From Nitrospirota bacterium (GTDB taxonomy: Bacteria; Nitrospirota; UBA9217), in NCBI GenBank assembly GCA_963840455.1, contig CAWIYV010000011.1, positions 576,001 through 640,000 on the forward strand: a stretch of DNA of 64,000 bases. The letters run 5' to 3'. Each line of letters begins with the position of its first letter. The stretch's first letter is position 1. The notes beneath the pieces were generated by a model. It saw only the letters and a program-made list of their open reading frames with translations. It was not told where the DNA came from and did no database searches. Below, in pieces: positions 18,761 to 54,864 of the stretch. The position numbers and the translations under genes are program-made.

Positions 18761-18780
18761 AGAGCTAATTCCTGATTGGA
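18761..18780. repeat. Partial copy of the att-associated hairpin
   Basis: agagctaattcctgattgga is identical to 42720-42739. Confidence 0.7.
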
Positions 18781-18909
18781 ATTTTCAGAGAAAGCCACGG
18801 GATCGGCCAGTCCCGGGATGATCCTAATCGCCGATTCCGGGCCTTCTTAAAAGATGCAACTTTCCTATTGCATCTATCCCGTGCGCGGGGGTAAAATTTA
18901 TAAGAGGTT

Positions 18910-19731
18910 TTGCTCATGGCCTTGACGGCATTCCTTCCACCTTCGAACCCTCATCAGCCGCAAGCCTCTATACGGAACATTCGCATGCACATGTCCGACC
19001 TCTTATCGACAGATCTTCCCGCGACCGACGCCGCGCCGCAGCCGATGTTCTGCGCGGCCATTGCCGGGTTCATCCGTTGCGCCTTCCGGCGCCCTGTCGC
19101 GGGACGGGTCCTCGCCGTCGCCGCGCTCATGGCCGCTGCGCATGCCCCTGGAACAGCCCGGGCAACGGAGCTGGCGTCCCTAAACTTTACGGTCGTTCAT
19201 CCGGCACAGCGTTGGTCCTCGGCGCCGCTCGTCCGGGAGACCTACGACACGTACAATGTCCACGGCACCAGCATTCCCGAGCTGTGCGCCTGCCTAAGCC
19301 GTAACGGCGTCCGGATGAATAACGGCGACATTTACGATGCCCTGACCAGCTGGGATGTGAAGTGGGAGTACGACTACGATCGCTCCCCTGGCGGATGCTC
19401 GGTGGATGACTTCCGCGCAGTCGTGGACGTGACCATCCGCTACCCCCGCTGGGTTTCGAACGATGACGCCCCTGCTCCGCTGGCAAATGCCTGGGACGCC
19501 TTTCTGCACAGCCTCATCCAGCATGAACAGGTCCACCGCGATATCGCTGTGGCAGCCGCCGACGGGCTGATCCGCGCCGCTACCGCGATCCCGCCTGCGG
19601 CCACCTGCGCTGACTTGGACCGGGCCGTGGAAGCCCTTGGCCGATCATTCATGAAGCAGCTCACGCTGGACCAGCATGCCTATGATGCTGAAACCAGCCA
19701 TGGCGCCATGCAGGGCGCCGTCCTTCCCTAG
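18910..19731 (+). CDS. DUF922-like secreted Zn-dependent peptidase (start probably further downstream)
   Basis: DALTSW, YPRW, HEQVH (HExxH), YDAETSHG. Confidence 0.75.
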   Translation: MLMALTAFLPPSNPHQPQASIRNIRMHMSDLLSTDLPATDAAPQPMFCAAIAGFIRCAFRRPVAGRVLAVAALMAAAHAPGTARATELASLNFTVVHPAQRWSSAPLVRETYDTYNVHGTSIPELCACLSRNGVRMNNGDIYDALTSWDVKWEYDYDRSPGGCSVDDFRAVVDVTIRYPRWVSNDDAPAPLANAWDAFLHSLIQHEQVHRDIAVAAADGLIRAATAIPPAATCADLDRAVEALGRSFMKQLTLDQHAYDAETSHGAMQGAVLP

Positions 19732-19876
19732 CACCCTTCAGCGCCTTACATCCACACCGATAGTTGTCACCATGAGCAAACAGAAAGAGCAGGCTGCTGT
19801 TTCGCCTGCTCTTCAAGCTGTGGTAACTTGCATGTTTTTCCGTCCTTCCCGGACGGTCATGGTGCACTGTGGTCCG

Positions 19877-20107
19877 CTACGGCAGACCAGAGCCAGGGCC
19901 GAAGAAGGACTCCCAGATGCGGGTGTGCTCATCGACCTCCTTTACCGCTCCTTTGCCTTCCGCTGCCAAGCCAAACGCTGCGACCTCCTTCTCATGGACG
20001 AGGTTCTCCTCATACATCGCAACGCCTACATCGACCGGCTTCTCCTCAGAGATGATCGTCGCCTTAATCGGCGTCGGTATCATCACTCTGCTTCTCCGGT
20101 CCCCCAC
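19877..20107 (-). CDS. Small hypothetical protein
   Basis: ORF with protein-like composition; no motif recognised. Confidence 0.35.
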   Translation of the reverse strand: MGDRRSRVMIPTPIKATIISEEKPVDVGVAMYEENLVHEKEVAAFGLAAEGKGAVKEVDEHTRIWESFFGPGSGLP

Positions 20108-20117
20108 GAACTATGCG

Positions 20118-20153
20118 AAAAAAAAGGCAGGCATCCCGTTGGATGCCGGCCTG
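20118..20153 (-). terminator. Intrinsic terminator
   Basis: ggcatcc...ggatgcc stem and T run downstream of the 20205 gene. Confidence 0.6.
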
Positions 20154-20204
20154 CGTTCTGGAATTGGCGGAGCTCCTGGATTCAGGGTCCGGGAAGGAGG
20201 TTGG

Positions 20205-21098
20205 TCAGAAAGCATAACTGAGCGTACCAACGTACCTCAGCGTGTCGTTAAAGCCTGCCTCATCGCGGTGGTAGAATTGCACACCAACACTGATGTTCGC
20301 ATGCTCCGTCACATATCGCAAGCCCGGCATAAGCCCTGTGGAATTCATTGCATTGACCGTGGGGATATTTTTCTTGACCACGGTCGTATACTCAAACATC
20401 GCCTGCAGTTTGCGGCTTTCCGTGAGCGGGAAGAGCAGTCCGGCGTTCACGACCCCATACTTTTCTGAATAACTCTTGCCATCTGTCCATGGAATCTTGT
20501 CCTTGTAACAGACCTGTCCTTCAAAATAGACGCCGATAAAGTAATCCCCGGGCATCTCCTTCTCGGCAGTGCCGATTACCATGAACCGCAGGCCCATATC
20601 CTCCACGTCGTTGTATCCCTTCGCGGCATCCCCGGTCGGGAACGTATACGCGATCCCGAGCGCTATGGCGGGCAAGGGGTCATTCTCGGACGAGATCCGC
20701 CACTTGACCAGGACATCGGTGTCACCGAAGCCGGTCTCCCGGGTCGTCGAACTGCCGAAGTTGGTCCCGATCGCCTGTGCGCGTATGCCGATCTCGATGC
20801 GATCCGTGATGCCCGCAGTGATCGTGGCGAAACCCTGTGCAATGCTGAAATTCGGATCGCTGCTGTTCTCGGCAATGGAGGCAAGACCCACGACGATGCG
20901 CCCCTTGGGCTGCGTATAGGCCGAGTTGGTAAAGATCAGCCCCGTGAGGCCCTGGATATTGGCCGGTCGGTTGATCACTGTGGAGGCATCGTCTTTCGGC
21001 ACTTCTCCGGAATCAAGGTAGCTGGACCCGGCCGCCGACTGACCGATCATGGTCAGCAGAATGATAACCCCGCCCACGATAGCACTCCGCATCGTCAT
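20205..21098 (-). CDS. Outer-membrane beta-barrel (YjbH / phenol-MetA-pathway-like transporter)
   Basis: Signal peptide, QGLTGLIFTNSAYT, GFGDT, FPTGD, C-terminal LSYAF. Confidence 0.7.
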   Translation of the reverse strand: MTMRSAIVGGVIILLTMIGQSAAGSSYLDSGEVPKDDASTVINRPANIQGLTGLIFTNSAYTQPKGRIVVGLASIAENSSDPNFSIAQGFATITAGITDRIEIGIRAQAIGTNFGSSTTRETGFGDTDVLVKWRISSENDPLPAIALGIAYTFPTGDAAKGYNDVEDMGLRFMVIGTAEKEMPGDYFIGVYFEGQVCYKDKIPWTDGKSYSEKYGVVNAGLLFPLTESRKLQAMFEYTTVVKKNIPTVNAMNSTGLMPGLRYVTEHANISVGVQFYHRDEAGFNDTLRYVGTLSYAF

Positions 21099-21593
21099 GT
21101 GATCCCACCTTCCTGCGGGCCGTCCTAGTGATGATCCCGCGTTCAGAAGTTCTCGCTCCGGCCGCTGTTCCGGCGGTCGGGCGGACAGAATAGGTCGGCG
21201 GTATCTGCCGCCAGTCACCGCGAGTGTACTAAAGACGCGATAAAGAGTCAATAAAAATGAAACAGCCGGGTCGGCAGGCCTCCGGACAGGATGGCAGCCG
21301 CTCTCCGGCATGTCACTCGGGGAGCAAGCACTTCAGGGGGCGGTCGGCAGAGTCCGTCTCCTTCGTTGCCTTTCCATTACACCGCTGCTCAAAACGCACT
21401 GGGTATCAGTGCCAGAGGCCAAGGGTCTGGAAGACGGACGTTAACGTATGGCATGGCGTCTCCGGAAAGGGCGAGGATGTGGACAGGAAAGTACATTAAG
21501 GGAACCGTCATGGTGTTGACAATATTACTGTTTGCAGAAAGGAGCAAGCGTGTTTTCCCATTTTCTGCTTCTGCGACATCCCGGTACCTGTGC

Positions 21594-21770
21594 AAAAAAA
21601 GCCGTCATCTCGTTAATGTCGGCCTGGTGAAACAAACTAGTGGAGGCGGCGTACTTTTAATAGTTTGTCCAATTCTTCAATATTAAATATTACGCGAGTA
21701 TTTTTTCGAGATATTATGACATACTCAAGATAGATACCCCCAAAAATGCTGGATGCTATTGGACAAAGCT
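21594..21770 (-). mobile_element. att-like junction A (degenerate tmRNA-3'-end core and conserved arm)
   Basis: tagtggaggcggcg at 21638-21651, then gtttgtccaa, gcgagtattttttcgaga and tagatacccc...aaatgctggatgct, shared with the 42819 copy. Confidence 0.75.
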
Positions 21771-21800
21771 GGCCGAACTGTACTGCGTCTGCCGGAAGAT

Positions 21801-27918: not shown

Positions 27919-28671
27919 TCACAAAAGCCCCCACGCCATCTTCGCTGCAATGGCATAAAGTACTACTCCTATGATCTTCTTTACCTGATTCGCGTCGAGT
28001 TTTTTGTGCATGAGCCATGATCCCAGAATCGCTCCCGCGATCGAGCCGACCGCGGCGAATGTCAGCAGGTTCCAATTTACCGCTCCTGTGGCAGCATGGC
28101 CGAAAAAGCCCGAAAGTGACGAGAAGACGACGATAAAGGCCGTGGTGGCCGAAGCCTTCTTGGGATCAATGCCGAGCCAGATGAGAGCTGGAACGATGAA
28201 GTTCCCGCCGCCCACTCCCAAAAGACCGCCGAGATAGCCGGCGCCTATGCCAAGGCCGATGCCGGTCTTGAGTTCCTTCCCGCCACCCCCCTGAACTTCG
28301 GCTTTTTTCTTCGGCTTATAAAACAACATCATCGACGCCGCAAAGACCAGAAAGAGCACGAATAGCACAATGAGCACATTCTTCGGAAAGTACCGCGTTG
28401 AATACGCGCCCAGGGGAGAAAAGAACACGGCAAGAACAATGATCGGAATGGCCGTCCTGAACAGGACCAGGCTATAGCGGATATAGTTGGCCGACGCGAA
28501 GGTCATACTGATGGCGTTTAAGAGCAGGCCAATGGCCATGGCCTCTGTAAGGGGTACGCCGAGCCAGTAGAACGTCGGGATGACGATGAATGCCGAGCCT
28601 ACACCCGCGATAGTCAGGACCGTGGTAAAGACGAATACGATGCCAGCAGCGGCAATATTGATGACAGGCAC
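27919..28671 (-). CDS. TauE/SafE (TSUP) family exporter
   Basis: AGVGSAFIVIP, GLLGVGGGNFIVP, KKASATT; about eight TM segments. Confidence 0.9.
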   Translation of the reverse strand: MPVINIAAAGIVFVFTTVLTIAGVGSAFIVIPTFYWLGVPLTEAMAIGLLLNAISMTFASANYIRYSLVLFRTAIPIIVLAVFFSPLGAYSTRYFPKNVLIVLFVLFLVFAASMMLFYKPKKKAEVQGGGGKELKTGIGLGIGAGYLGGLLGVGGGNFIVPALIWLGIDPKKASATTAFIVVFSSLSGFFGHAATGAVNWNLLTFAAVGSIAGAILGSWLMHKKLDANQVKKIIGVVLYAIAAKMAWGLL

Positions 28672-28788
28672 AATATGCCTCCTTTCAGGGAACAACGCTT
28701 CCGGCAAAACAGCCCCCGTCCCCTCCCCCGTTTCAGGAGGAGAGAACAGGGATTGTCAGTATGGACCGGATTGCGTCTGTGTCCGCCG

Positions 28789-29394
28789 CTATTTCTCGTA
28801 TCCTGAGCAGGGAATGCAGACGATCTTGCCTGACTTGACGCGGGTATTCCTCTCCACGACCATCTCGCCGCACTGGGAGCAGGCCATGGTCTCGAAGGTA
28901 TGGGGCACGTCCTTCCAGGGATGGTTCTTGATCTCGCCTACGTTGTACAGCATCTCGGCCGGTGCGGTGGTCACACCCTCGAACAACGGGGCCACGACCT
29001 CGGGCGGCACCTGCGAGGCCGGGATGCCGGAGCTGCGCATCTCCATGAACTTGGAACCCTTGTTCTTGGCCATCACTTCGGCCTTGGGCACCACGCGCAC
29101 GGAGCGGCTTGTCTTCTTGTCGATCAGTGTCAGACCCCATTTGCCGTAGCCGGTCCGGGTGATGTTTCCCTTGCCGTAGGTGCAGCCTGTGGCAACCTGC
29201 ACGCCGTCTGCGAAACAGGTTGCACAGTGATTTTCATCCAGCTCTACGATCGCCATAAGCTGGCCGTCCGGCGCTTTCGATACGCCGAGCTTCTCCATTG
29301 CGGTGAGTCCTGCCCGAAGCCCCATGGGCATGGCCGGGCACTTGTGGCCATGGAACTTAAGGCCCATTTCCAACAGTTCTTTGAAATCCTGCAT
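28789..29394 (-). CDS. Cytoplasmic FmdE-family protein with C-terminal C4 Zn finger
   Basis: FHGHKCPAMPMG, CFADGVQVATGCTYGKGN, CSQCGE...CIPC. Confidence 0.9.
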   Translation of the reverse strand: MQDFKELLEMGLKFHGHKCPAMPMGLRAGLTAMEKLGVSKAPDGQLMAIVELDENHCATCFADGVQVATGCTYGKGNITRTGYGKWGLTLIDKKTSRSVRVVPKAEVMAKNKGSKFMEMRSSGIPASQVPPEVVAPLFEGVTTAPAEMLYNVGEIKNHPWKDVPHTFETMACSQCGEMVVERNTRVKSGKIVCIPCSGYEK

Positions 29395-29428
29395 GATAGT
29401 CCTCCGTTAGTTAGTGTGTGACTGACAT

Positions 29429-29506
29429 GGTTCTCCCCTCTTGAACGCGGACATACACCCGGAGGTTACCAGCCGTTCCACCAGCATTGGCAAATGACGG
29501 AGAACC
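29429..29506 (-). promoter_or_regulatory. Candidate structured leader RNA upstream of the fmdE-tauE genes
   Basis: Perfect 8-bp closing stem ggttctcc/ggagaacc enclosing two hairpins. Confidence 0.35.
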
Positions 29507-29555
29507 TTTTTTTTGCCCTGATCTTCATAGTATGTTCAAAATCTCCTGTACGTCT

Positions 29556-30596
29556 CTACCTCTGTATAAGTCCGAACAGATACCCGCCAAAGACCGTGAA
29601 TACAATGATCAGACTTACATACGTAACCGTTCTTTTTGTCCCCATGATCTTGCTGACAACCAGGATGCTCGGAAGCGACAGCACGGGGTCCGCGAGAAGA
29701 TAGGCCATGAGCGGACCTTTGCCCATGCCGAGATCGAGAAATACCCTCGCCATCGGCACCTCTACCAGCGTCGGGAAATAGACCAGCACGCCGAAGAGAA
29801 CGGGTATGAGCAGGGCGGTCAGGGAATTTGACCCCACGTAGGTCGTAACGAACTCCTGGGGCAATAAGACCTTGACCATGCCTGAAACGAAGACGCCGCC
29901 AAGAAGAAGCGGGGCGATCGTTTTCGCAAAACCCCACGTTTCTCTCATCCAGCCTGCAATCTCTTCTTTGATAAAGAGCTTTTTCGCTATCAAGGCGCTC
30001 GCGCCGATCAGAATGAGCACGGTCACATACTTGATCCAGGGAACGCTTACCCGTGTCCCGACCAGCAGTATCCCGAGAAGGACGCTGAACAGATAGACCA
30101 ACCGTTTAATATCGTGGCTTTCCGAGCTTCTGACAAACGTATCGGCTGCTAGCGCTTCTTCCTGTTCGTGAAACATCTTGCTGATGATCATTCCGATCGA
30201 CACGGCGAACAGGATGGATAGGAATATCCGTGCCCCTGCCACGTCCCAGCCGATGAGACTGCCGGTATACAGTATGGCTACGATGTTCGTTGCCGGCGCG
30301 GTATAGAGGAACGCGATGGCCGGACCGATTCCGGCGCCGCCTTTCTTTATTCCGGCAAAGAGCGGAAGGACCGTACAAGAGCAGACGGCCAGCAAGAGAC
30401 CCGAAGCAACCGATAGCGGGTATGCAATATGCTTTGGAGAGTCTTTCCCGAGGTACGGCAGGAGCAGGTCCTTGGGAATCAGCGCCGCCATTGCACCTGC
30501 GATGAAGAACGCCGGGACGAGACAGAACAGTGTATGCGCAAGCACATAATCGTACACAGCCGCGAAGCCTGAGGATACTATCGCATAGATGTCCAT
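29556..30596 (-). CDS. ArsP-family (DUF318) permease
   Basis: LAVCSCTVLPLF, AFLYTAPATN, LLADPVLSLPS. Confidence 0.88.
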   Translation of the reverse strand: MDIYAIVSSGFAAVYDYVLAHTLFCLVPAFFIAGAMAALIPKDLLLPYLGKDSPKHIAYPLSVASGLLLAVCSCTVLPLFAGIKKGGAGIGPAIAFLYTAPATNIVAILYTGSLIGWDVAGARIFLSILFAVSIGMIISKMFHEQEEALAADTFVRSSESHDIKRLVYLFSVLLGILLVGTRVSVPWIKYVTVLILIGASALIAKKLFIKEEIAGWMRETWGFAKTIAPLLLGGVFVSGMVKVLLPQEFVTTYVGSNSLTALLIPVLFGVLVYFPTLVEVPMARVFLDLGMGKGPLMAYLLADPVLSLPSILVVSKIMGTKRTVTYVSLIIVFTVFGGYLFGLIQR

Positions 30597-30597
30597 A

Positions 30598-30831
30598 CTA
30601 CCCCCTCAGCAACAAAGCGATCTCCTCAACGCTGGGGATCTTTCCGCTTGCCACGGTCTTGCCGTCTATAAGCAATGCCGGTGTCATGAATATGCCCCGT
30701 TCGATGATTTTCCCCATATCATAGACATGTTCCACAGTGGCATTTGCGCCGGTCAGAGCAACCGCTTCCTTTGCCCGCTTTTCGAGTTCCGCACACTTGC
30801 CGCATCCCGATCCGCATACTTCGATCTTCAT
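30598..30831 (-). CDS. Small redox-active disulfide protein (Thioredoxin_3 family)
   Basis: GSGCGKC, MTPALLIDG. Confidence 0.9.
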   Translation of the reverse strand: MKIEVCGSGCGKCAELEKRAKEAVALTGANATVEHVYDMGKIIERGIFMTPALLIDGKTVASGKIPSVEEIALLLRG

Positions 30832-30864
30832 GGCGCACCTCCCTATCGTGCTGCCGTTACACTA

Positions 30865-33368: not shown

Positions 33369-33587
33369 CTACCCGTTTTTCAGCCCTGCCTTTGCCTTGT
33401 CCACGACCCGGCGGACATCAACCAGGCATCACCTGCCGAGCGGGTGGTTCGTGCCGCAGTTGCACCCTCCGCCCTTCTTCTCCGCAAGTATTCGCTCCAT
33501 GATCAGGGAGCGGTTCTTATTTTCGAGCACATCCCGCGTTATGTCCTCTTCCGAATACCCAAAGCAGTAGCAAATTTGGTTTTCCAT
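33369..33587 (-). CDS. 72-aa CopZ-N-terminal-like 2Fe-2S/metal-binding protein, probable selenoprotein (codon 53 is UGA)
   Basis: Not in ORF track. MENQICYCFGY...GGCNCGTNHPLGR-U-CLVDVRRVVDKAKAGLKNG; SECIS-like hairpin directly after the UGA. Confidence 0.8.
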
Positions 33588-33592
33588 GGCAA

Positions 33593-33994
33593 TTATATCC
33601 CCGTCTTTTTCAGCATGGCCGCGATTTCCTCATAAGGATAGAATCCAATGTGCCGGTGAAACTCTTTGCCGCTCTTGTCCAGAAAGACCTGCACCGGGAT
33701 CATGTACACACCGTATCTGCGAGCCGTCTGCTGGTCCTTCTTAACATCAATGAAGATTACGTCAAGCTTTCCCTTGTAGGTGTCGGACAGCTTTGCCATC
33801 ACCGGTTTCATCTGTTCACAGGGAATACAGCCCACAGAACCGAGTTCCAGCATCACGATCCTTCCTTCGGCCTTCGCCTTGTTCAGTGAATCATCGAGAC
33901 CGCCTGCATTGCTGCACGACGTGGAAAGCGTCAGGACCAGAACCGCCAGAATCATTATCCTCAACCTTGTCTTGCGTCCTCTTTTAACTTTCAT
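33593..33994 (-). CDS. Exported thioredoxin-family protein
   Basis: Signal peptide / lipobox, GCIPC, IPVQVF...HIGF. Confidence 0.88.
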   Translation of the reverse strand: MKVKRGRKTRLRIMILAVLVLTLSTSCSNAGGLDDSLNKAKAEGRIVMLELGSVGCIPCEQMKPVMAKLSDTYKGKLDVIFIDVKKDQQTARRYGVYMIPVQVFLDKSGKEFHRHIGFYPYEEIAAMLKKTGI

Positions 33995-34009
33995 TTCCGA
34001 TCCATTTCT

Positions 34010-34084
34010 TTATTTCACCCGCTCGACGATGGCTGTCAATCCCCTGCATTTCGGGCACCCGGAACCGAGGATCTCGATCTTCAT
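34010..34084 (-). pseudogene. Truncated small thioredoxin-like gene
   Basis: MKIEILGSGCPKCRGLTAIVERVK* (24 aa), paralog of the 30598 and 35715 genes. Confidence 0.65.
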
Positions 34085-34209
34085 CAAGCCATGGCCTTTC
34101 TGAGCGTTTTTGATATCCCCGCGGTCCTCACCTGGCCGTTCCTGCAGATCGCCGGGCCGCAAAGCCCGGACGAGCAGCACATGGCTGGATCATAAATTTC
34201 GATTTTCAT
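34084..34209 (-). pseudogene. arsD: Internally deleted arsenic metallochaperone
   Basis: MKIEIYDPAMCCSSGLCGP, the ArsD N-terminal Cys motif, in a 41-aa remnant. Confidence 0.75.
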
Positions 34210-34231
34210 AAATGCTTTTTTTCCTTTCATG

Positions 34232-35311
34232 TTAAAGAGATGCTGAACCTTTTACCCGGCAATACTCAACAGAAAAGTATCTTTTCTGAAAATACCGAGC
34301 GACATTGACCAGACCGATCAATACCGGCACCTCCACCAGCGGACCGATGACGGCGGCGAAAGCTGCACCCGAATTGATCCCGAACACGGCAACTGCGACG
34401 GCTATAGCAAGTTCAAAATTATTGCTCGCAGCGGTAAAGGAGAGCGTCGCGGTTTTCGGATAGTCAGCGCCGATCTTCTTCCCGAGATAGAACGACACCA
34501 GGAACATGACCACGAAGTAGATCAAGAGCGGCACAGCAATGCGTAGCACATCAAGGGGTAGTTTGACGATATAGTTGCCCTTGAGCGAGAACATGACGAT
34601 GATGGTGAACAGGAGCGAGATAAGCGTTATCGGGCTGATCTTCGGGATGAAGACGGTCTCATACCATTGGCGGTCTTTCAGCTTGATAAGCGTAAAGCGG
34701 GTCAGTATCCCGGCGATGAACGGAATGCCAAGATAGATGAAGACGCTCTCCGCGATCTGGCCGATCGTTATATTGACCACAACGCCCTTAAGCCCGAACC
34801 AGCCTGGAAGGACAGTGATAAAGATATAAGCATACACGGAAAAGAAAAGGACCTGAAAAATAGAATTGAATGCAACTAGACCGGCTGCATACTCGGTGTC
34901 TCCGCAGGCAAGGTCGTTCCAGACGATCACCATGGCAATGCAGCGGGCAAGGCCAATCATGATTAGGCCGACCATGTATTCGGGATACGACCGGAGGAAG
35001 ATGATAGCAAGAGCGAACATCAGAATCGGACCGATTACCCAGTTCTGCACCAGAGAGAGGCCCAGTATCTTCTTGTTCCGGAAGACCTCACCAAGTTCTT
35101 CATACTTGACCTTAGCCAGCGGCGGGTACATCATGAGGATAAGGCCGATCGCTATAGGGATATTGGTCGTGCCGACCTGAAAGCTGTTGATAAAGGCTTC
35201 CGTGCCCTGGATGAAGTACCCGAGACCCACCCCGAGGGCCATAGCCGCGAAAATCCAGAGTGTAAGAAAGCGGTCTACAAAAGAAAGCTTTTTCTCCGAA
35301 GTTTCACCCAT
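34232..35311 (-). CDS. acr3: Acr3 arsenite efflux transporter
   Basis: [48 protein letters not shown]. Confidence 0.96.
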
Positions 35312-35330
35312 TGTTTTCTCCCCCTTTTCT

Positions 35331-35705
35331 TCAACCGCAGCAGCGGACCTTGCTCTTCAGCGACACGACCTTTCCGCCTTGTTCTTTCCTGTTAAGAAAA
35401 GAATCAAGACGCTTCCTGTCGCCTGACATCGTACCGCCCTGCATCCGCTCACAAGCGGAGAGGATCAGCATCCTCCGGAACAGGTCTTTTTCGTTCAGGC
35501 TGTAATGGATCCATTTCCCCTGTTTGCGGTCCTTGATGAGCCCCGCTTCCTTGAGCGCACTGAGATGAAAAGACACCTTCGGCTGCACCATGTCCAGCGC
35601 GGCCGTGATGTCGCACACGCACAGTTCGCCCTGCTCCAGCAGCTTTACGACCCGGAGTCTGGTTTCGTCGGAAAGCGCCTTGAATATCGTCACGAGTTCG
35701 TTCAT
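35331..35705 (-). CDS. arsR: ArsR/SmtB transcriptional repressor
   Basis: [22 protein letters not shown]-terminal CC. Confidence 0.93.
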
Positions 35706-35714
35706 GTCCACCCC

Positions 35715-35957
35715 CTACGCTTCACCTTTGATCAGTTCCTTCACCTTCTCCAGGCTTGGGAGCGGCTTTCCCGAATGCTTGATCTTGCCGTTCACGATAA
35801 GCCCCGGTGTGGATAGAATGCCGTGCATAGCGATCTGGCCAATGTCGGTGATCTTCTCTATTTTTGCCTCGATACCAAGTTCTTTCACAGCTGTTTTCGC
35901 CAGTTCCTCCATCTTGAAGCAATTTGAACAGCCTGGACCAAGTACCTTGATTTCCAT
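35715..35957 (-). CDS. Small redox-active disulfide protein (Thioredoxin_3 family)
   Basis: GPGCSNC, STPGLIVNG. Confidence 0.9.
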   Translation of the reverse strand: MEIKVLGPGCSNCFKMEELAKTAVKELGIEAKIEKITDIGQIAMHGILSTPGLIVNGKIKHSGKPLPSLEKVKELIKGEA

Positions 35958-35971
35958 TGTTCTCCCTCCTC

Positions 35972-36323
35972 TTAAACCCTCTTGAACTTTAATTGTAGTG
36001 CTGGTATTCGCGAAACTGTATGCGGAGGCTGCAGCTTGAATTCATGGGCAGCTGCAACGAGTCCGGCCCTGACGATCAAATCAGCGGGAATCGCTTCATG
36101 GGTCTCGTCGGCATATACAACGGTTCTGCATTTCGCTTCGCCGCACGTTTCACAGCATTTGCTCTGACCGGTTTTCGCGCCAAGCCATTCTTCCATGAGC
36201 TTTCCAGCGATCAGGATCTTGTTGGACGGCCTTTTCAACTTCCTGCTCCGTAGTACCGCACCGAGGACAGGTCTGTTTCTGCTCATCAAGCAGCCGTTGC
36301 CATTCAACAACAAGCGTCTTCAT
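35972..36323 (-). pseudogene. DUF2703-like Cys-rich protein with internal deletion/frameshift
   Basis: MKTLVVEWQRL...TCPRCGTT is in one frame; SNKILIAG...CCETCGEAKCRTV...HEAIPADLI is in another. Confidence 0.65.
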
Positions 36324-36336
36324 CCCTGCTTGCCTC

Positions 36337-37293
36337 CTACAGAATTGCGTTAAACAGGTAGCCTACCCCGACGATCGTGACGGTCATGATCCCCACGAAC
36401 ACGGCAAGGAGCTTGATCTTTAACACTTTCCGAAGAATGATCATTTCAGGAAGCGATAGAGCCGTTACAGCCATCATGAACGCAAGCACGGTCCCCATAC
36501 TCATCCCCTTCTCCATAAGAGCATAGACGATGGGAATGACTCCGGCTGCATTGGAGTAGAGCGGGACGCCGATCATGACCGCAAGCGGCACAGCAAAAGG
36601 ATTACCGTTGCCTGCATATTTCACGAGGAAATCATCTGGCGCATACCCATGGATAAACCCACCGATGCCTATCGCGATGATGACATAGAGCCACACCTTT
36701 TGGAGGATCTCGGCGGTGTTCATCCGGGCATAAACAAGGCGGTCCTTAAAAGACTGCTTGACCGAGTTGATGGCCATGCCCATTGACTGTATTTTATAGA
36801 CGTATTCCTCGACCCAACTTTCGAGTTTAAGCCTACCGATAATATACCCTGCTACAATGGCCACCGACAGCCCGGCGCTCATGTAGATCACTGCGACCTT
36901 CCAGCCGAACAGGCCCCAGAGAAGCACAACGGCGACCTCGTTCACCATGGGAGATGAGATCAGGAAGGAGAATGTAACTCCGAGCGGTACTCCGGCCTCG
37001 ACGAAGCCGATAAAGAGTGGCACTGCAGAGCACGAGCAGAACGGAGTAACAATTCCCAGGAGCGCAGCGAGAATATTGCCTATAAATTCTCGTTTATGGG
37101 ACAGGATTCGCTTGGTACGTTCAGGCGAGAAGTAGGACCGGATGACGGATACGGCGAAAATAATGACGGAAAGCAGCAGAAATATCTTTATAGTGTCATA
37201 AATGAAGAATTCCAGGGCTCCCGACAACCGTGCGCCCCGCGACATCCCAAAGAGGTCATACACTAGATAATCAGCCAAGACCTTTAGCATCAC
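36337..37293 (-). CDS. ArsP-family permease
   Basis: TPFCSCSAVPLFIG, FLISSPMVNE, GVPLYSNAAG, LSLPE. Confidence 0.9.
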   Translation of the reverse strand: MMLKVLADYLVYDLFGMSRGARLSGALEFFIYDTIKIFLLLSVIIFAVSVIRSYFSPERTKRILSHKREFIGNILAALLGIVTPFCSCSAVPLFIGFVEAGVPLGVTFSFLISSPMVNEVAVVLLWGLFGWKVAVIYMSAGLSVAIVAGYIIGRLKLESWVEEYVYKIQSMGMAINSVKQSFKDRLVYARMNTAEILQKVWLYVIIAIGIGGFIHGYAPDDFLVKYAGNGNPFAVPLAVMIGVPLYSNAAGVIPIVYALMEKGMSMGTVLAFMMAVTALSLPEMIILRKVLKIKLLAVFVGIMTVTIVGVGYLFNAIL

Positions 37294-39377: not shown

Positions 39378-42300
39378 CTACCAGTAAATTTCGGCGGTTG
39401 TGGTTGGTGCAGAGGTGGAAAATCCGCCCACAAGCAGCAGCTTGCCATTCGATAGCAGCGTGGCGGTATGTGCTGCGCGTGCAGTGGCAAGGCTCGGCGC
39501 CGCTGACCAAGTGCCTTCCGCCGGATCATAGAGTTCAGCGAGAACACTGCCGACACCGCTGATATTACCGCCGGCTACCAGTACCTTGCCATTGGGCAAC
39601 AACGTGGCAGTATGCTGATTTCGCACGCTGGCGAGACTCCCTGTCGCTGACCATGTGCCAGATGCCGGATCATAAAGCTCGGCACTGCTGCCGCCGAAAC
39701 CGCTCGCAACAAGCACATTGCCATCAGGCAGAAGCGTGGCAGTGTGATCATAGGTCGGAGCTATAAGACTGCCCGTTGGCGACCATGTGTTGGTGGCTGG
39801 ATCATACAGTTCAGCAGTGCCAAGATGGCCGCCAATCGTATCTCGTCCTGCCGCTATCAGCACTTTTCCGCTGGCGAGCAGCGTTGCAGTATGGCCTAAA
39901 CGCGCATTAGCAAGGCTCGGCGCTGCAGTCCAGATTCCCGTTACCGGATCGTAGAGCTCTGCGCTGGCAAGCGCTGCCGCACCATCCCATCCACCTGCCA
40001 CCAGTATCTTGCCGTTAGGCAGCAGCGTGGCAGTATGACCATTGCGCGCCGTAGCGAGACCGCCTGTCGCAGACCATGTACCAGCGACGGGATCATACAA
40101 CTCGACACTGTCAATCGCTGCAATGCCGCTCCAACCTCCTGCAACCAGAACTTTGCCGTTCGACATCACCGTAGAGCTCTGATATTCACGGGGAGTGGCC
40201 AGATTGCCCGTCGTTGACCAGAGCCCGGTCGACACGTCGTACAGCTCGGCAATGGCAAGAGCAATCACCCCGTTCGACCCACCCGTTACCAGCACTTTGC
40301 CGTTCTGCAGCAGAGAAGCGGCGTGGGAATAGCGCGCATCTGCGAGACTGGAGGTCGCCGACCATCTGCCGGCATCCGGATCATACAACTCGGCACTGGC
40401 CAGAACCGGCGGACCGTAGCCACCCACTAGCAATACTCTACCATTGGGTAGCAGCGTGCCTGTATGGGTGTGGCGAGCGGTAAAGAGATTCTGCGCTGCA
40501 GTCCAGGTGTTGGCGGCTGGATCATACAGCTCGACGTTATCCTTCGAGACGGGACCATTCAATCCTCCCGTCGTCAGCACCTTGCCATTAGGCAAGAGTG
40601 TCGCCGTCATGTTGTAGCGTGCAGTGATGAGACTCGCTGCATAGGCCCAGGTATTGGTGGAGGGATCGTACAATTCGACGCTGGCCGTACCGCTGCCGCC
40701 AGTATGCCCACCCATCACCATCACTTTGCCATTGGGCAACAGCTTTTCGGCGTGGTACATTCGCCCTGAATTGAGACTCGCTGCCGCAGTCCAATTTCCC
40801 GTCGCCGGATCGTAGAGCTCTGCAGTGCCAAGCGTTGACGAACCATCATATCCGCCCGTCACCAGTATCTTGCCGCTGGGCAGCAAGGTGGCTGCGTGAT
40901 AGTAGCGCGCAGTAATGAGGCCCGTTGCAGAGGACCAGGTATTGGTGTCTGGATCGTACAGGTCGGCATTGGCAAAGGCTGTCGCACCATTCGTTCCACC
41001 CACCACCAAGACTTTACCGTTGGGCAACCGGAGACCGGTTGCCAGGTAGCGCGCCGCAGAGAGAGAGCCTGCCGAAGACCAGGTGTTGCTGGCAGGATCG
41101 TACAACTCGGCGCTGGCCAGAAAAGTCGCACCCACACCATACCCCCCTGCGACCAGCACTTTGCCATTTTGCAGCAACGTAGCGGTATGCGTCGAGCGCG
41201 CAGTAGTGAGACTCGCTGCTGCGGTCCAGGTATTGGTAGCTGGATCGTATATTTCGACACTGGCCAAAGCACTGCCAGAAAGCCCCCCAACCACCAGCAC
41301 CTTGCCATTGAGCATCAGCGTGGCAGTCTGAGAGTAGCGCGCCGCAGCAAGGCTGGCCGCGTTAAGGATCCCACCACGCGGCAGCGGTCCGCAGATCACT
41401 TTGAGAGCTGCAACGTTCTCATTATGCACGGTACTCGCACCGTAGGTCTGGGTACATGTCTGGTTCGCCGGCGAAGAAACAATGGAAAGGTCATAGGCAG
41501 CGCCGTTATTCAACTTTGCCGGGAAGGTGAACGGTCCATCGGCGAATAGAGTGATGGTGTCCGCGCCATTGTTGGCCAGCGTGATGCTGTTACCGGCCGC
41601 CAAACCGGTCAACGTGCCGCCGATACCGGCTGTGACGGTCAGCGTCGCGGTATTAGATGTTCTTCCGCTCAACGATGCCGAAATAGAGCTTGTGCCTAGG
41701 GTCAGACCTGTGGCGATGCCGCTGGCATTGACCGTGGCCACAAGGGAATTGCTGGAGTTCCAGGTGACCGATCCGGAAATGTCACCGAAGGTGCCGTCTG
41801 AATAGGATCCGGTGGCGGTGAACGTGGTCGTTGTGCCTTTTGCGATTGACGCAGAGGCAGGCGTTATAGCGATGCTGTTCAAGGCAGCTGCAGTGACAGT
41901 GATGTTGACTGCAGGCGAAGTAACGCTGTTCATTGAAGCCGTGATGGTGGCCGTTCCCACGACTATACCCGAAACGACGCCCGTGGCACTCCCGACACTG
42001 GCGGTGGCAGGATCTATCGAGGTCCACATGACCGCAGTGGTGATGTCAGCCGTGGTCCCATTCGAGTAGATTCCGGTGGCCGTAAGGCTGCCTGTCATCC
42101 CTTTGGCGATCGTAGCGGAGCCAGGTGTAACAGCGATGTTGGTCAGGGTTACCGGAACAGGGATCCGGTCGCAAATGTAATTGCTGGAAGTTACCTCTGT
42201 GGAATCCAGAACCGTGTCCCCACTGGTATCCAGGCCCACGCTGATCTTTACGCCGCCGTTTGAACAGTTCGTTCCCACAGATTCGGTCGTAACCGATACC

Positions 42301-42590
42301 AGTGCCGATAGACCGGCATTGCCGTTAGCTCCATTGCAAACATATTGCGTACTGGTGACCTCCGAAGGGTCAAGGACGCCATTGGCATTGACATCGATTC
42401 CCGCGTCCACCGAGATGCCACCGTTCGGGCAGATGCTGACCGGCGCTGTATATCTGAGCGCTGTGACCACTGAATTCTTACCCGTGGGTGTGTTCGCGCT
42501 CCCTCCGCTTCCTCCGCCGCATCCTGCAAGCGCCAGGAGTGATATCAAACCCAATACTTGTAAATTGATTTTGGTAGTGTTTAGTAGCAT
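39378..42590 (-). CDS. Surface lipoprotein with Cys-paired N-terminal repeats, two Big_2 domains and 14 Kelch repeats
   Basis: Lipobox LAGC; two C.NGG...GxD...LD..EV...Y.C units; two AT...YS(N/D)GT Ig-like domains; 14 HTATLLxNGKVLVxGG-type repeats. Confidence 0.9.
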   Translation of the reverse strand: MLLNTTKINLQVLGLISLLALAGCGGGSGGSANTPTGKNSVVTALRYTAPVSICPNGGISVDAGIDVNANGVLDPSEVTSTQYVCNGANGNAGLSALVSVTTESVGTNCSNGGVKISVGLDTSGDTVLDSTEVTSSNYICDRIPVPVTLTNIAVTPGSATIAKGMTGSLTATGIYSNGTTADITTAVMWTSIDPATASVGSATGVVSGIVVGTATITASMNSVTSPAVNITVTAAALNSIAITPASASIAKGTTTTFTATGSYSDGTFGDISGSVTWNSSNSLVATVNASGIATGLTLGTSSISASLSGRTSNTATLTVTAGIGGTLTGLAAGNSITLANNGADTITLFADGPFTFPAKLNNGAAYDLSIVSSPANQTCTQTYGASTVHNENVAALKVICGPLPRGGILNAASLAAARYSQTATLMLNGKVLVVGGLSGSALASVEIYDPATNTWTAAASLTTARSTHTATLLQNGKVLVAGGYGVGATFLASAELYDPASNTWSSAGSLSAARYLATGLRLPNGKVLVVGGTNGATAFANADLYDPDTNTWSSATGLITARYYHAATLLPSGKILVTGGYDGSSTLGTAELYDPATGNWTAAASLNSGRMYHAEKLLPNGKVMVMGGHTGGSGTASVELYDPSTNTWAYAASLITARYNMTATLLPNGKVLTTGGLNGPVSKDNVELYDPAANTWTAAQNLFTARHTHTGTLLPNGRVLLVGGYGPPVLASAELYDPDAGRWSATSSLADARYSHAASLLQNGKVLVTGGSNGVIALAIAELYDVSTGLWSTTGNLATPREYQSSTVMSNGKVLVAGGWSGIAAIDSVELYDPVAGTWSATGGLATARNGHTATLLPNGKILVAGGWDGAAALASAELYDPVTGIWTAAPSLANARLGHTATLLASGKVLIAAGRDTIGGHLGTAELYDPATNTWSPTGSLIAPTYDHTATLLPDGNVLVASGFGGSSAELYDPASGTWSATGSLASVRNQHTATLLPNGKVLVAGGNISGVGSVLAELYDPAEGTWSAAPSLATARAAHTATLLSNGKLLLVGGFSTSAPTTTAEIYW

Positions 42591-42713
42591 GACCTCCTGC
42601 CTCCTTAACATTTTAAAGTAGAGAGTGATTTCATTTGTGGAGAAGCCTATGCCAAATTAAACATATTGTCAATAAAAAAATTGGTCAATACTAAATATAT
42701 TTGTTTTCTTTGG

Positions 42714-42970
42714 AAAAAAAGAGCTAATTCCTGATTGGAGTTAGCTCTAGATCGTGCAAGTCTTTGGCCGATGGTGCACTCCAAGGACCAATAAAACACT
42801 GAAAATCAGTGCCTTAAATGGTGGAGGCGGCGGGAATTCTATCGTTCGTCCAACCCATCGATATTCGGCGAGTATTTTTTCGAGAAATTGCGACATACCC
42901 CAAATAGATACCCCTGAAATGCTGGATGCTGTAAGTCTGCATTGGATGATATAAGACAGCATTGGACAAT
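42714..42970 (-). mobile_element. att-like junction B
   Basis: Hairpin 42720-42748; core tggtggaggcggcgggaatt at 42819-42838 (reverse complement AATTCCCGCCGCCTCCACCA); cataccccaaatagatacccc repeat. Confidence 0.85.
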
Positions 42971-43029
42971 GTAGTCATACTATGCATTTTGCACTACAGG
43001 TTTTAAGGGGCAGGTCAAGCTTCAGTCGT

Positions 43030-44937
43030 TCACTGCGGCGTGATATCGCTCTGCTTGATGCCTGCATCTGACTTGGCTTGATCCATCAGTGCGGCGCAGT
43101 TGCTGTCCGTTTTATCGCCAAAATCGAGCAGGGGTATCAGCCCGGCCACGCCCACGGTCGCTGCGGCCAGACCCACCGCGAAGCCGCCGCGCACTGCCAC
43201 CTTGTTCGTGTCAGGTTTAGCCTTCGGCTTTATGAGCGTGCCAGTGACAAGGATCGGGCCTCGCAGCGATACCAGGCTGAACCCCTTCGACTGCGATACC
43301 AGTCTCAGGTGCAGCGATTCATCGGCAAAGTTCACGTTGCCATCGCCGGTAATATTTACCTTGGGCGTATCCAGCACCAGGTCCTGGACTTTGAAATCCC
43401 CTTCGACGGCCTTGAAGTTCGCCACCATGCATCGTATCGGGACGTTTTTGTCGCCGCGCAGCAGCACCAGGAACGAGTTGGCGATGTCGACGTTGGCTTT
43501 TCTGAGCAGCAGCTCGCTTATGGTGCCGCCGTCTATGATCAGCGCCGCCTCGCCGTTCGCCGATCCCATCATTTGCGAAATCGAGTCTCCCTTGGCGTCG
43601 AGCTTTGCGCGCCCGCCAATGACTCCCGGGTTGGAGGCAGTCGGTTTCGAGGTCGGGAGCAATTGGTCGAGGTGCAGTCCTTTCGCCGTGATGTCGGCAT
43701 GGGTGATGATGTGTGGCCCGCGCCCGTCCATCGTGATCTCCGTGACCAGCTTGCCGCCGGCGGTTTCGAAGTTCAGCGGCGCAAGTTTGAGCGTGCCGTC
43801 CTTTATGATGAGATGTGCATCCATCTTTTCGATCGGCAGCCTCGTGGTAATGATCTTATCGCCCTTGAAAAGGACATCGGCATCGGCAGCGCGGATCTTT
43901 TCGAGGCTGAAGGGCATGGTCGGCAGCACCTTGTTGCGCGGTCCGCTGACGAGGTCTGCGCCTATGAAGCCGCTCAAGTCGTTCATTTCCAGGCGGCGTG
44001 ATTCCAGGTCGGCGGTGATCAGTTGGGGGATCTTGCTGCGGTCCACCGACAGATCTCCGGTCAAATCACTCTTTCCCACTAACCCCTCAAAGCGCTTGAA
44101 TGTCCAGATGTTGCCGGTATGGGTCAGGTACCCTGTCAGCCTGTAGGGAGGCGTCGGCGGAAAAGGCACACCGATGATCGGATACAGCTGGGCAAGATCG
44201 ATACCTTCGAGAATGATATTTACCTTTTCGTTTTTCAAGTGCAGGGGGTCGAGCAGCGTTCCGTTGATGCTGGCCCTGGTCCTACCCAGCATCAAAATCG
44301 CCTTGATCGGGTAGGGCCGGTCGGCGCGGCGCAGCGCAAGCAGCGCTCCGCCGCTCATATAGAGCTTGGCGTCCATTCCCCTGAACCTGCCTTTTCCCTT
44401 CACTTCGACCATGGTATCCGGCCCGCCCTCGGCAACGGCTAAGGTATTTATCACGAATGACAGGTTCGTATTGTTCGTTGGATTGCGATACGTGAGGGTT
44501 CCATTATCGATGGAAAGCGAACCTATGTGGGGGAATTGCCATTGCTTGCCTGCCTTGTTGAAAACCCAGTTCGGCGTGCTGTCCTTGTTTACTTCGAGCG
44601 CCAGATAAAAATCGGACAAGGATATTTCAGGAATTGACAAACGGCCAATGAGGAGCTTCGGTATGCTGATAGTGAGATCAACGCGCTTGATCTTCGCCAT
44701 GGGCGGATTGTTACCCCATTCTGCGTTGCCCATCACGATGTCGTTGGCGATGATGCGCGGCCACAGCGAAAGATGCACATCCAGATCACCCTTGATCTCA
44801 AAGCTTCTGCCCGTCGAACGTGTCACCTGGCGCGCTACATACGGACGAGCCAGATTCCAGTCGAATGCACTTACGGCCACGACCAGCAGCAACAGGCCTG
44901 CGCCTACTCCGACAAGCCACTTTCTCCTTCGGGTCAT
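43030..44937 (-). CDS. AsmA-family protein (YhjG-like)
   Basis: N-terminal TM then FDWNLARP, NW motif, TPPYRL, VGKSDLTG, VPIRCMV, SLRGPI. Confidence 0.9.
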   Translation of the reverse strand: MTRRRKWLVGVGAGLLLLVVAVSAFDWNLARPYVARQVTRSTGRSFEIKGDLDVHLSLWPRIIANDIVMGNAEWGNNPPMAKIKRVDLTISIPKLLIGRLSIPEISLSDFYLALEVNKDSTPNWVFNKAGKQWQFPHIGSLSIDNGTLTYRNPTNNTNLSFVINTLAVAEGGPDTMVEVKGKGRFRGMDAKLYMSGGALLALRRADRPYPIKAILMLGRTRASINGTLLDPLHLKNEKVNIILEGIDLAQLYPIIGVPFPPTPPYRLTGYLTHTGNIWTFKRFEGLVGKSDLTGDLSVDRSKIPQLITADLESRRLEMNDLSGFIGADLVSGPRNKVLPTMPFSLEKIRAADADVLFKGDKIITTRLPIEKMDAHLIIKDGTLKLAPLNFETAGGKLVTEITMDGRGPHIITHADITAKGLHLDQLLPTSKPTASNPGVIGGRAKLDAKGDSISQMMGSANGEAALIIDGGTISELLLRKANVDIANSFLVLLRGDKNVPIRCMVANFKAVEGDFKVQDLVLDTPKVNITGDGNVNFADESLHLRLVSQSKGFSLVSLRGPILVTGTLIKPKAKPDTNKVAVRGGFAVGLAAATVGVAGLIPLLDFGDKTDSNCAALMDQAKSDAGIKQSDITPQ

Positions 44938-45078
44938 GATCGTTCTAGCTCCTTGTATCTTGTGTTTCCGGGCAGACAGGTAGCACGACCAGGTTTCAGA
45001 TTGTCGTCTTACCAAGCAAGAGGCTCTGTGTGTTTATAATTATAACACGTGGTGTCAGGAAAAAGAAAAGCCCCTCGC

Positions 45079-45105
45079 TGTCATTTCGAGCGCAGCGAAA
45101 AATCC
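45079..45105. repeat. Single GTCAT-type REP-like palindrome unit
   Basis: tgtcatttcgagcgcagcgaaaaatcc; only one copy seen in the window. Confidence 0.35.
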
Positions 45106-45235
45106 CGCAATGGGGACAATATCCCGATTACATGATGCTGTGTGTAACCTGGATTTTATGATGTAGTTTCTGAACAGCAGCTTCTTTCTGCAGCTCACGA
45201 CAGTTTCATTTTATTGAAATTGCTAGCTCTATATC

Positions 45236-45530
45236 TATTGTCCAATCGCCTAAATTACAATACCCCGAAAAATACCCCAACTTGTGAGCGCTAGAAAACA
45301 AAAAAAGAGCTAATTCCTTTAAGGAGTTAGCTCTGGTTCCAGCCTGTGTTCAGTGGAGACTTTCGAAAAAATCAAAATATCACTGAATATCAAATAGATA
45401 TGGTGGAGGCGGCGGGAATTCTAAAGTTTGTCCAACCTTCGATATTCCACGATATTTATTTCTAGAAATTACGACATGCCCCAAAGAGATACCCCTTTAA
45501 TGCTCGATGTCACGAGACATTGTCGGACTA
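45236..45530 (-). mobile_element. att-like junction C
   Basis: taccccgaaaaatacccc (about 45261-45278); hairpin 45306-45334; identical 20-bp core at 45401-45420; catgccccaaagagatacccc. Confidence 0.85.
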
Positions 45531-54861: not shown

Positions 54862-54864
54862 AGT

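Follow-up and report, generated by a model that had tools for sequence, protein, structure and literature searches.

Tandem genomic islands at the 3' end of ssrA, the gene for transfer-messenger RNA (tmRNA), are known from Dehalococcoides. According to McMurdie et al. (2011; PMC3146451), several such islands follow one another in the ~100 kb downstream of ssrA, which is present as a single gene; a 20-bp direct repeat of its 3' end marks the limits of every island, and their content varies between strains. The study reports a six-gene integration module, including the large serine recombinase DsiB, in 16 islands, and proposes that islands lacking this module are cis-mobilisable and were joined by accretion. 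Here we describe an array of comparable architecture in an uncultured Nitrospirota bacterium. The window, i.e. the whole stretch of 64,000 nt that was analysed, corresponds to positions 576001–640000 of contig C11 (window-scale positions past 64000 lie further right on C11) in a metagenome-assembled genome (MAG; G000) of 4.03 Mb and 14 contigs, which by marker genes is 100% complete and 0.83% contaminated. The array begins inside the window, ends at ssrA 63 kb to the right of it and consists of 11 cargo modules (M0–M10) with junctions that carry a 20-nt copy of the ssrA 3' end.

As in Dehalococcoides, the units stand in tandem at ssrA, share a 20-bp repeat of its 3' end, vary in content and include units without an integration module. 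Unlike there, none of the 11 Nitrospirota modules has a recombinase, the genus has no large serine recombinase, the junctions possess long arms whose phased repeats are of the kind typically seen with tyrosine integrases, and the host belongs to a different phylum. No integration module of the DsiB/DsiA type was found: PF00239 and PF07508 have no match in G000, and PF07508 has none in five other genomes of the genus or on any junction-bearing contig.

In a review (PMC5704250), cis-mobilisable elements (CIMEs) are defined as integrative and conjugative elements (ICEs) or integrative and mobilisable elements (IMEs) that have decayed: attL and attR are retained, the genes for integration and transfer are gone, and mobilisation depends on a functional ICE or IME neighbour. 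In Streptococcus, repeated site-specific integration has lined such elements up in tandem at the 3' end of a target gene. The Nitrospirota modules are likewise flanked by attL/attR-type junctions and have no integration or transfer genes. They differ from CIMEs in that integrase, relaxase and coupling-protein pseudogenes are absent, no ICE or IME is adjacent in G000, the array with its 11 units is much longer and this state extends across the whole family. CIMEs and their site-specific accretion with Streptococcus ICEs and IMEs are reportedly treated by Pavlovic (2004) and Bellanger (2011).

The tycheposons of Prochlorococcus (bioRxiv 10.1101/2020.12.28.424599) reside at tRNA and tmRNA genes, where newer elements push older ones into the island and partial tRNA repeats and degenerate remnants are found; small primase/helicase replication modules stand beside cargo of environmental value, and 910 of 937 tycheposons encode a tyrosine integrase, the rest a serine recombinase. 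The Nitrospirota array is similar in target and cargo and, in relatives of G000, in the presence of a replication-type AEP-primase/helicase gene, whereas the element with this gene has replication and toxin–antitoxin genes and no integrase in the copies examined. With tandem tRNA and tmRNA islands in general the array shares the direct repeats of the 3' end and a variable interval between conserved flanks, the difference again being that no unit encodes an integrase.

The first-pass annotation of the window had called the array integron-like, which stands as a functional analogy only. Alike are the one-directional stack of cargo between recombination sites, the toxin–antitoxin pairs and the fact that integrase-less arrays are possible, as in clusters of attC sites lacking integron integrases (CALINs). 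However, the Nitrospirota array has no adjacent integrase, intI, attI or attC, its repeat is derived from ssrA, and its modules are multi-gene units of 2.6–27 kb with their own regulators. The array is set apart by the lack of a recombinase in any unit and, beyond XerC and XerD, in the genome, by the family-wide extent of this state and by the long composite arms of its junctions. Judged by titles and abstracts, no publication on such tmRNA-linked island arrays of Nitrospirota was found.

Junctions carrying the 3' end of ssrA

The single tmRNA gene of G000 lies at C11:703275–703624 (window-scale 127275–127624; Infernal 200 bits), on the minus strand and to the right of the window, as the first-pass annotation had predicted; its tag is read by ARAGORN as ANNELAYAA. 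The junction core, AATTCCCGCCGCCTCCACCA, found exactly at 42819–42838 and 45401–45420 on the minus strand (0 such matches expected from shuffles), is the last 20 nt of this gene, so that the proposed origin of the core from a tmRNA 3' end is borne out by both Infernal and ARAGORN. Of its 20 nt, 4 are the end of the T-loop, 5 the 3' half of the T-stem and 7 the acceptor strand; the discriminator and CCA make up the rest. Fuzzy matching across the genome (up to 3 mismatches) returned eight internal core sites on C11, ssrA itself and a site with one mismatch on the 7.7-kb contig C5. Six internal cores are exact (window-scale 42819, 45401, 72601, 90400, 115408 and 121332) and two imperfect (80349 with 3 mismatches, 84773 with 2). 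Thus, an intact tmRNA gene stands at the right end of the array and direct repeats of its 3' end bound the units. The identity with ssrA ends inside the T-loop, which is a known sublocation for integration into tRNA and tmRNA genes, and stops sharply at 20–23 nt in every copy (two junctions have 23 nt in common with ssrA), which is a signature of site-specific exchange. Rfam and ARAGORN found no RNA gene in the window; the junctions do not belong to any known RNA gene family.

The conserved element surrounding the core measures ~330 bp, more than the 200–250 bp first estimated, with 165–190 bp on the hairpin side and 130–150 bp on the other. We refer to the hairpin (left) side as the P' arm and to the right side as the P arm, and name each junction J followed by the start of its core. 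Using nhmmer profiles, 11 full-length P arms were detected in the 4.03-Mb genome (E 1e-23 or better): nine in the array, including a decayed copy at 21640, one on C5 and a lone one at C11:302730. The eight P' arms (E 4e-29 or better) belong to seven junctions and to the DNA directly downstream of the real ssrA, which is thus followed by the same P' arm and hairpin. All arm copies in G000 have one orientation and, C5 and C11:302730 apart, are confined to the array; the element is therefore not scattered. The lone P arm (C11:302727–302899, L050:9728–9900; nhmmer E 4e-33) is situated 273 kb left of the window, has a core with 4 mismatches and lacks a P' arm; it is surrounded by small unannotated open reading frames (ORFs), with a NosL gene and a Metallophos/response-regulator pair adjoining, and represents either a translocated junction or a secondary-site insertion.

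In the P' arm the hairpin agagctaattcc-N5-ggagttagctct occurs at 42720–42748 and 45306–45334, the two copies noticed by the first-pass annotation, with minus-strand folding energies of −13.9 and −14.4 kcal/mol, respectively, and a U run after each. A third hairpin, also with a U run, folds at −17.3 kcal/mol, and 0 of 200 shuffles fold as well. A simple terminator scan did not flag these hairpins, which direct folding did show; from their folds they are predicted to be intrinsic terminators in the ssrA direction. A pattern scan of metagenomes returned 44 junction-bearing stretches (42 locus ids, several with 3–4 junctions; 147 ORFs of at least 120 aa), in which two IS30-like and one IS4/5 transposases were found inside or beside junctions. 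Both IS30-like genes (HTH_38 + rve; L070:309–1301 and L079:1267–2259) lie in or beside the hairpin-side arm, and the palindromic terminator may be a preferred target of insertion sequences.

The arms are furthermore characterized by short repeats. Within −260 to +200 of 12 boundaries TACCCC is present 19 times on the plus strand and twice on the minus strand, at fixed offsets of +77/+90 and −140/−130; its genome-wide density is 0.24/kb, both strands together. When 44 P arms are aligned, a AATAGTTTGTCCAA block that hardly varies adjoins the core and is followed by GATATT, two TACCCC 13 bp apart, and GCTGGATG and TTGGACTAATTCGG, whereas the P' arm carries a second unit of GTCCAA and two TACCCC beyond the hairpin. 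The TACCCC/GTCCAA repeats are phased and strand-specific and have been kept across genera with no coding role. GTCCAA and paired TACCCC on the side opposite the hairpin had already been read as arm-type repeats by the first-pass annotation, in agreement with these counts and offsets. Phased, oriented repeats flanking a short identity block constitute the attP layout of lambda-type tyrosine integrases. In the attL arm of G000 the TACCCC repeats have been lost. Between ~+30 and +75 from the core (e.g. window 42860–42895) the P arm contains a segment that differs between copies and shows either GATATT..GATATT or a palindrome, and in which GATAT→GAAAT is paired with ATATT→ATTTC in several copies; this segment may bind a dimer or form a small hairpin.

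Junction arms are 65–92% identical over 125 nt. The right arm of J90400 is 0.80–0.84 identical to those of J115408 and J121332, its left arm just 0.65–0.66; within G000 the arm types assort independently across the core. The possibility that the P arm is a diverged tmRNA body was rejected, the alignment score being above shuffles for 0 of 7 arms. A second ssrA-derived fragment of ~80 nt was found at C11:691054–691130 (window-scale 115054–115130; tmRNA nt 278–336 at 85%), ~280 nt from a core and in the orientation of ssrA; it is also present at L053:6282–6349 and L067:4035–4102. From this fragment, the common P' arm type would itself seem to be a mini-element devoid of cargo, which was once inserted at another sublocation together with a longer duplication of ssrA.

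Modules of the array and their variation among relatives

The variable array extends over 116 kb from 10866 to 127275 (2.9% of the genome), so that the stretch 18761–45530, to which it had initially been assigned, is a genuine but partial section of it. The extent follows from the position of the conserved flank in a congener: in G021 a block homologous to window 4682–10608 is ~8 kb from ssrA, compared with 116 kb in G000, and these 8 kb contain genes for a histidine kinase, a pseudouridine synthase, a methyltransferase and an FAD protein and no junction repeats. Homology of the flank to contig C63 of the congener G021 and to G018:C103 stops at window 10608–10865 (in G018 at 10865). In three further genomes (G041, G005 and G006) and at two metagenome loci the flank with the 4HBT gene is no more than a few kb away from the outermost P arm. 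The GC content of the modules is 0.50–0.58, as opposed to 0.60–0.61 in both flanks and 0.579 in the genome.

Table 1. Features of the array in window-scale coordinates; E values are from nhmmer unless stated otherwise.
Feature	Position	Strand	Size	Content or basis
Left array boundary	10860–10870			Conserved 4HBT thioesterase / hemerythrin-PAS flank ends
M0	10866–18760		7.9 kb	ECF sigma factor, CBM48-domain protein, unannotated envelope proteins (Pfam)
Junction remnant	18761–18780	minus		Half terminator hairpin, no core left; identical to 42720–42739
M1	18781–21639		2.9 kb	DUF922 protein, outer-membrane-barrel-like protein (Pfam)
Decayed junction	21640–21792	minus		12 contiguous core bases (21640–21651), then P arm; E 9e-33
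M2	21793–42659		21.2 kb	ABC/MacB/LolA-like exporter, arsenic-type cluster, thioredoxins, Usp, SLT, 1077-aa Kelch-repeat protein (Pfam); GC 0.533
P' arm of J42819	42660–42818	minus		Terminator hairpin 42720–42748; E 2e-33
Core of J42819	42819–42838	minus		Exact copy of last 20 nt of ssrA
P arm of M3	42839–42971	minus		GTCCAA, GATATT, TACCCC at 42896 and 42909; E 8e-40
M3	42972–45235		2.6 kb	Single AsmA-family gene, 43030–45015 minus (Pfam AsmA E 1.7e-48)
P' arm of J45401	45236–45400	minus		TACCCC at 45261/45273, hairpin 45306–45334; E 6.5e-51
Core of J45401	45401–45420	minus		Exact copy of last 20 nt of ssrA
P arm of M4	45421–45550	minus		E 1.6e-38
M4	45551–64000, on to 72600		27.2 kb	ExbB/ExbD, TPR proteins, 1715-aa OmpA-domain protein, 3077-aa DUF11 surface protein, AraC-type response regulators (Pfam); next junction C11:648601
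M5			7.7 kb	RND/HlyD/OEP efflux system (Pfam)
M6			4.4 kb	Porin and MOT1 transporter (Pfam)
M7			5.6 kb	KatG, Fur, PIN + AF2212-like toxin–antitoxin pair (Pfam)
M8			25.0 kb	AcrAB-type pump, proteases, glucodextranase, MFS, VirJ, MprF, MsrAB (Pfam)
M9			5.9 kb	Two-component system, cytochrome b561 (Pfam)
M10			5.9 kb	Di-haem cytochrome c, P-type ATPase, Usp (Pfam)

The recurrences which the first-pass annotation had placed at about 21.6, 42.8 and 45.4 kb, with a fragment at 18761, correspond to a decayed copy, two exact cores and a hairpin remnant, respectively (Table 1). The remnant matches the hairpin in its 5' half, loop and first bases (weak hairpin-side profile match at 18753–18783), and the left junction of M0 (GC 0.536, against 0.611 in the flank) is lost in C11. 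An age gradient with decay increasing leftward had also been suggested. It is supported by the two leftmost boundaries, which are the most decayed, but not by 80349 and 84773, which are more decayed than the perfect cores to their left at 42819, 45401 and 72601.

The cargo was scanned against Pfam with 94 ORFs (at least 70 aa) from M1–M10 and 10 from M0 and its neighbourhood; the modules proved to be unrelated to one another and free of integrase genes, as anticipated from the window alone. M2 encodes an ABC/MacB/LolA-like exporter, FmdE, TauE, two ArsP proteins, a SAM methyltransferase and an SBF/ACR3-like transporter. Within it, an arsenic-type cluster at window 27922–37293 combines both ArsP genes, the methyltransferase, which has an N-terminal extension, and the SBF/ACR3-like transporter with thioredoxin-fold proteins, DUF2703, Usp, TauE and FmdE. 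At the right end of M2 lies a 1077-aa Kelch-repeat gene (window 39378–42611, minus strand) with 14 tandem 144-bp units at 39424–41351. In public sequencing runs, which were viewed as assembled contigs only, contigs of three runs join 39525 to 42849 and those of one run join 39623 to 42738, with the Kelch gene removed; there appear to be relatives in which most of this gene and the core next to it are missing.

We compared 64 family genomes, G000 included (in the collection used, the class consists of that family alone), and took 20 loci from relatives, 13 of which include ssrA. Matches to the junction are present in 29 of the 64 genomes. The P' arm is found directly behind ssrA in all 13 ssrA loci of relatives, and a P arm follows at 1.7–9.6 kb from ssrA in six of them. 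A pattern scan of genome contigs gave 13 stretches, among which the only true match was another Nitrospirota MAG, G032 (two entries), with at least two modules; the other 11 look like chance. Several adjacencies of module and junction recur in independent contigs.

Module content varies between close relatives, congeners among them. G018, with ~90% identical DNA, lacks M0 and M2–M6; its order is flank, 0.8 kb, an M1-like block (89% identical), a junction, 4.2 kb of other DNA and the KatG gene of M7, and the junction is a hybrid, with a left side of M1 type and a P arm of J84773 type. Contig C5 (L013, 7677 bp) is 98–99.8% identical to window 5595–10865, diverges at 10866 and continues with a fragment of an AraC gene, a hairpin, a core with the one mismatch given above and a P arm. 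C5 thus represents a strain variant with a different junction-bearing right end, and the sampled population is heterogeneous at the array edge. An extra 2.1 kb of C5 (C5:4333–6472) holds an outer-membrane-barrel-like gene. Taken together, on the three points that the first-pass annotation had offered for its own disproof, the core is that of the host ssrA, copies of the element are not dispersed over the genome, and module content and order differ in relatives.

The commonest module in the relatives is an element of ~4 kb with a full junction on either side, made up of a P arm, a gene for an 800-aa AEP-primase/helicase (Pfam AEP-TOTE), a small ORF, a toxin–antitoxin pair of the PIN/AF2212-like or Gp49/HTH_37 type and a P' arm (e.g. 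L024:10057–13276 in G020, L071:10189–13654, L017, L019 and L020). The family is represented in 20 of the 64 genomes, G000 not being among them; in at least seven the element is in or beside the ssrA array, and in G032 it occurs twice in tandem. Among the ssrA-proximal, and hence most recent, modules of the relatives it is the most frequent; it is intact in several genera, and no copy examined contains a recombinase. The right end of M7 (toxin–antitoxin pair and P' arm; window-scale 89505–90400) is ~84% identical to the end of this element. A literature search on 'TOTE' found nothing relevant. Locus L067, considered as a possible cassette swap, shows only an AEP-TOTE module between two full junctions.

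Search for a recombinase

None of the 104 array ORFs belongs to an integrase, resolvase, transposase, relaxase, phage or conjugation family in Pfam, and none of the 38 unannotated array ORFs matches PHROGs. A six-frame search of G000 with PF00589 gave seven matches, of which the two intact ones are XerC (TIGR02224, 349 bits; gene context dprA-topA-xerC-hslU) and XerD (TIGR02225, 388 bits); even at E 0.01, no integrase remnant was detected on the 924-kb contig C11. A tyrosine integrase had been expected near ssrA, and there is none. In 15 relatives no PF00589 match was found within 10 kb of ssrA or a junction, although many of their contigs are short, which makes this negative weak for those relatives; the nearest matches are at 14 kb (G007), 61 kb (G020), 107 kb (G014) and 208 kb (G047). 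The integrase 61 kb downstream of ssrA in G020 was rejected as the enzyme, no core copy being present near it. Tyrosine and serine recombinases are likewise absent from the 147 ORFs of the 42 metagenome loci, and viral contigs gave no match to the junction pattern. The family-wide PF00589 survey covered 150 of 459 matches.

A family of 477-aa tyrosine recombinases (SAM_4 + Phage_integrase, with a 160-aa N-terminal extension) is present in 35 of the 64 genomes, and in G000 as a copy broken into at least two frames (C7:124556–126313). A role as the missing enzyme is not supported: no junction-like DNA lies beside six copies of the gene or beside the G000 remnant. The gene occurs in 6 of 14 genomes with P arms versus 28 of 49 others, i.e. 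without association with arrays, and in G031 (100% complete, 2 contigs) P arms are present and the gene is absent. Its frequent presence in several copies, often at contig ends, suggests that the family is an unclassified mobile element.

Formation of the array

We lean, with only slightly more belief than doubt, towards site-specific accretion of integrase-less modules at the ssrA T-loop by a hypothetical tyrosine integrase acting in trans. Each module would once have been a circle with an attP-like site, P – 20-nt core – P', which a site-specific recombinase would have crossed with the T-loop of ssrA. This enzyme would most likely be a lambda-type tyrosine integrase whose arm-binding domain recognises the phased GTCCAA/TACCCC repeats of either arm. 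Insertion of the P' arm would restore the last 20 nt of ssrA and bring a new terminator hairpin, while the old 3' end would be displaced and everything behind it pushed away from the gene. Repeats of this cycle would have stacked ~11 modules over 116 kb between the ancestral flank at window 10866 and ssrA. As a consequence of such stepwise insertion, each internal junction would be a hybrid to which the newer module contributes the P arm and the older one the P' arm, with the core between them. Since the modules are cargo without a recombinase, the enzyme would have to be supplied in trans, from a helper element or another locus. The array in G000 is probably static now, because its attL arm is devoid of TACCCC repeats and the genome contains no intact candidate enzyme, its only intact tyrosine recombinases being XerC and XerD.

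A number of points weigh against accretion by a trans-acting integrase. An integrase acting in trans had been postulated by the first-pass annotation, but no enzyme associated with these att arms was found in G000, in the family genomes as far as examined, at the 42 metagenome loci or in viral contigs, and the enzyme is therefore hypothetical. Neither the 42838/45420 joint nor any other circular or excised form was seen in the assembled contigs of public runs, in which rare forms are not visible, and the joints 39525–42849 (three runs) and 39623–42738 (one run) are not at cores. Locus L091, considered as a loss of M7 exactly at the junctions, has M6 fused to the middle of M8, and its breakpoints, after the hairpin and within M8, are outside the cores; this is an ordinary deletion, and it follows that such deletions also shape the array. 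Furthermore, G000 is a MAG, from which a helper plasmid or phage may have been left unbinned, joins at repeats of ~330 bp could in principle be chimeric, and the short contigs of many relatives weaken the absence of nearby integrases.

Classical decay, with every module starting out as a complete IME, ICE or prophage island that had an integrase of its own beside the att site, is an unlikely origin of the array. The integrase would have to have been lost from every one of dozens of elements that kept both full arms, which is unlikely, and no remnant was seen on C11, among the 147 metagenome ORFs or near the arrays of 15 relatives; even the most recent module of the relatives, with its AEP-primase/helicase and toxin–antitoxin genes intact across several genera, has no recombinase. 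In favour of this origin, deletions that ignore the junctions do occur at this array, junction cores and arms deteriorate, and the separate ~80-nt ssrA fragment shows scars of other integration events. A succession of integration, decay and new integration is, moreover, the published origin of such tandems (PMC5704250).

A dedicated recombinase would not be needed if natural transformation and RecA-dependent homologous recombination had used the ~330-bp repeats as portable homology. Such a route would agree with the failure to find a recombinase, with junctions that are 65–92% identical over their 125-nt arms and with the dprA gene in the genome, but the first insertion at ssrA requires a break exactly at the T-loop, and identity ends sharply at 20–23 nt. 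In addition, an arm identity of 65–85% over ~150 bp makes a poor RecA substrate, left and right arms reassort exactly at the core, and the phased, strand-specific TACCCC/GTCCAA repeats on both arms are conserved across genera with no coding role. We consider this route quite improbable.

The same low probability is given to a host or unconventional enzyme (XerC/XerD, the 477-aa tyrosine recombinase or a new protein class) that runs the array in an integron-like manner. The 477-aa family behaves like a mobile element, has no junction-like DNA beside its genes and does not co-occur with arrays, even though cis recombinases are absent family-wide and a frozen array would be consistent with the broken G000 copy of a gene that 35 of the 64 genomes carry. 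As for the Xer recombinases, the target of Xer-dependent integrative mobile elements (IMEX) is dif, whereas that of the array is ssrA. The junction contains nothing dif-like and does not resemble the best dif-like site of the genome, which is on another contig (C7:451052–451079); the dif comparison is a weak test and the site a lead only. Finally, a dispersed regulatory or terminator element of the repetitive extragenic palindrome (REP) or miniature inverted-repeat transposable element (MITE) kind, resembling the ssrA end by chance, would suit the strong intrinsic terminator and the location between convergent or co-oriented operons, but is highly improbable given 11 full-length copies of which nine are in one array, confinement to a single locus starting at ssrA in a single orientation, 20 nt identical to ssrA with none expected by chance, an interval of 8 kb in the congener against 116 kb in G000 and module GC shifted from that of the flanks.

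Site-specific accretion might be extended to a more general, though unlikely, possibility: by analogy with IntI, the locus would be a chromosomal gene-capture platform at ssrA, where recombinase-less cassettes are handled by one enzyme from elsewhere via the ~330-bp att site. This enzyme could be the integrase of a rare helper element or an unrecognised host recombinase, and the AEP-primase/helicase and toxin–antitoxin element would be a self-replicating 'empty vehicle'. If one trans recombinase does serve the modules, they would form a second kind of shared cassette platform besides integrons, and the 330-bp site together with the 20-nt ssrA target would be a testable pair for finding the enzyme. 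Island finders that demand an integrase miss such arrays entirely.

The cargo of the array relates to metal, oxidant and envelope stress. It includes arsenic-type transporters with a methyltransferase, two RND efflux systems, KatG/Fur and MsrAB, as well as MprF, a P-type ATPase, a porin with a molybdate transporter, an ECF sigma regulon and giant surface proteins. With these stress traits gathered in one place, the array marks where these uncultured wetland and sediment bacteria exchange adaptive genes.

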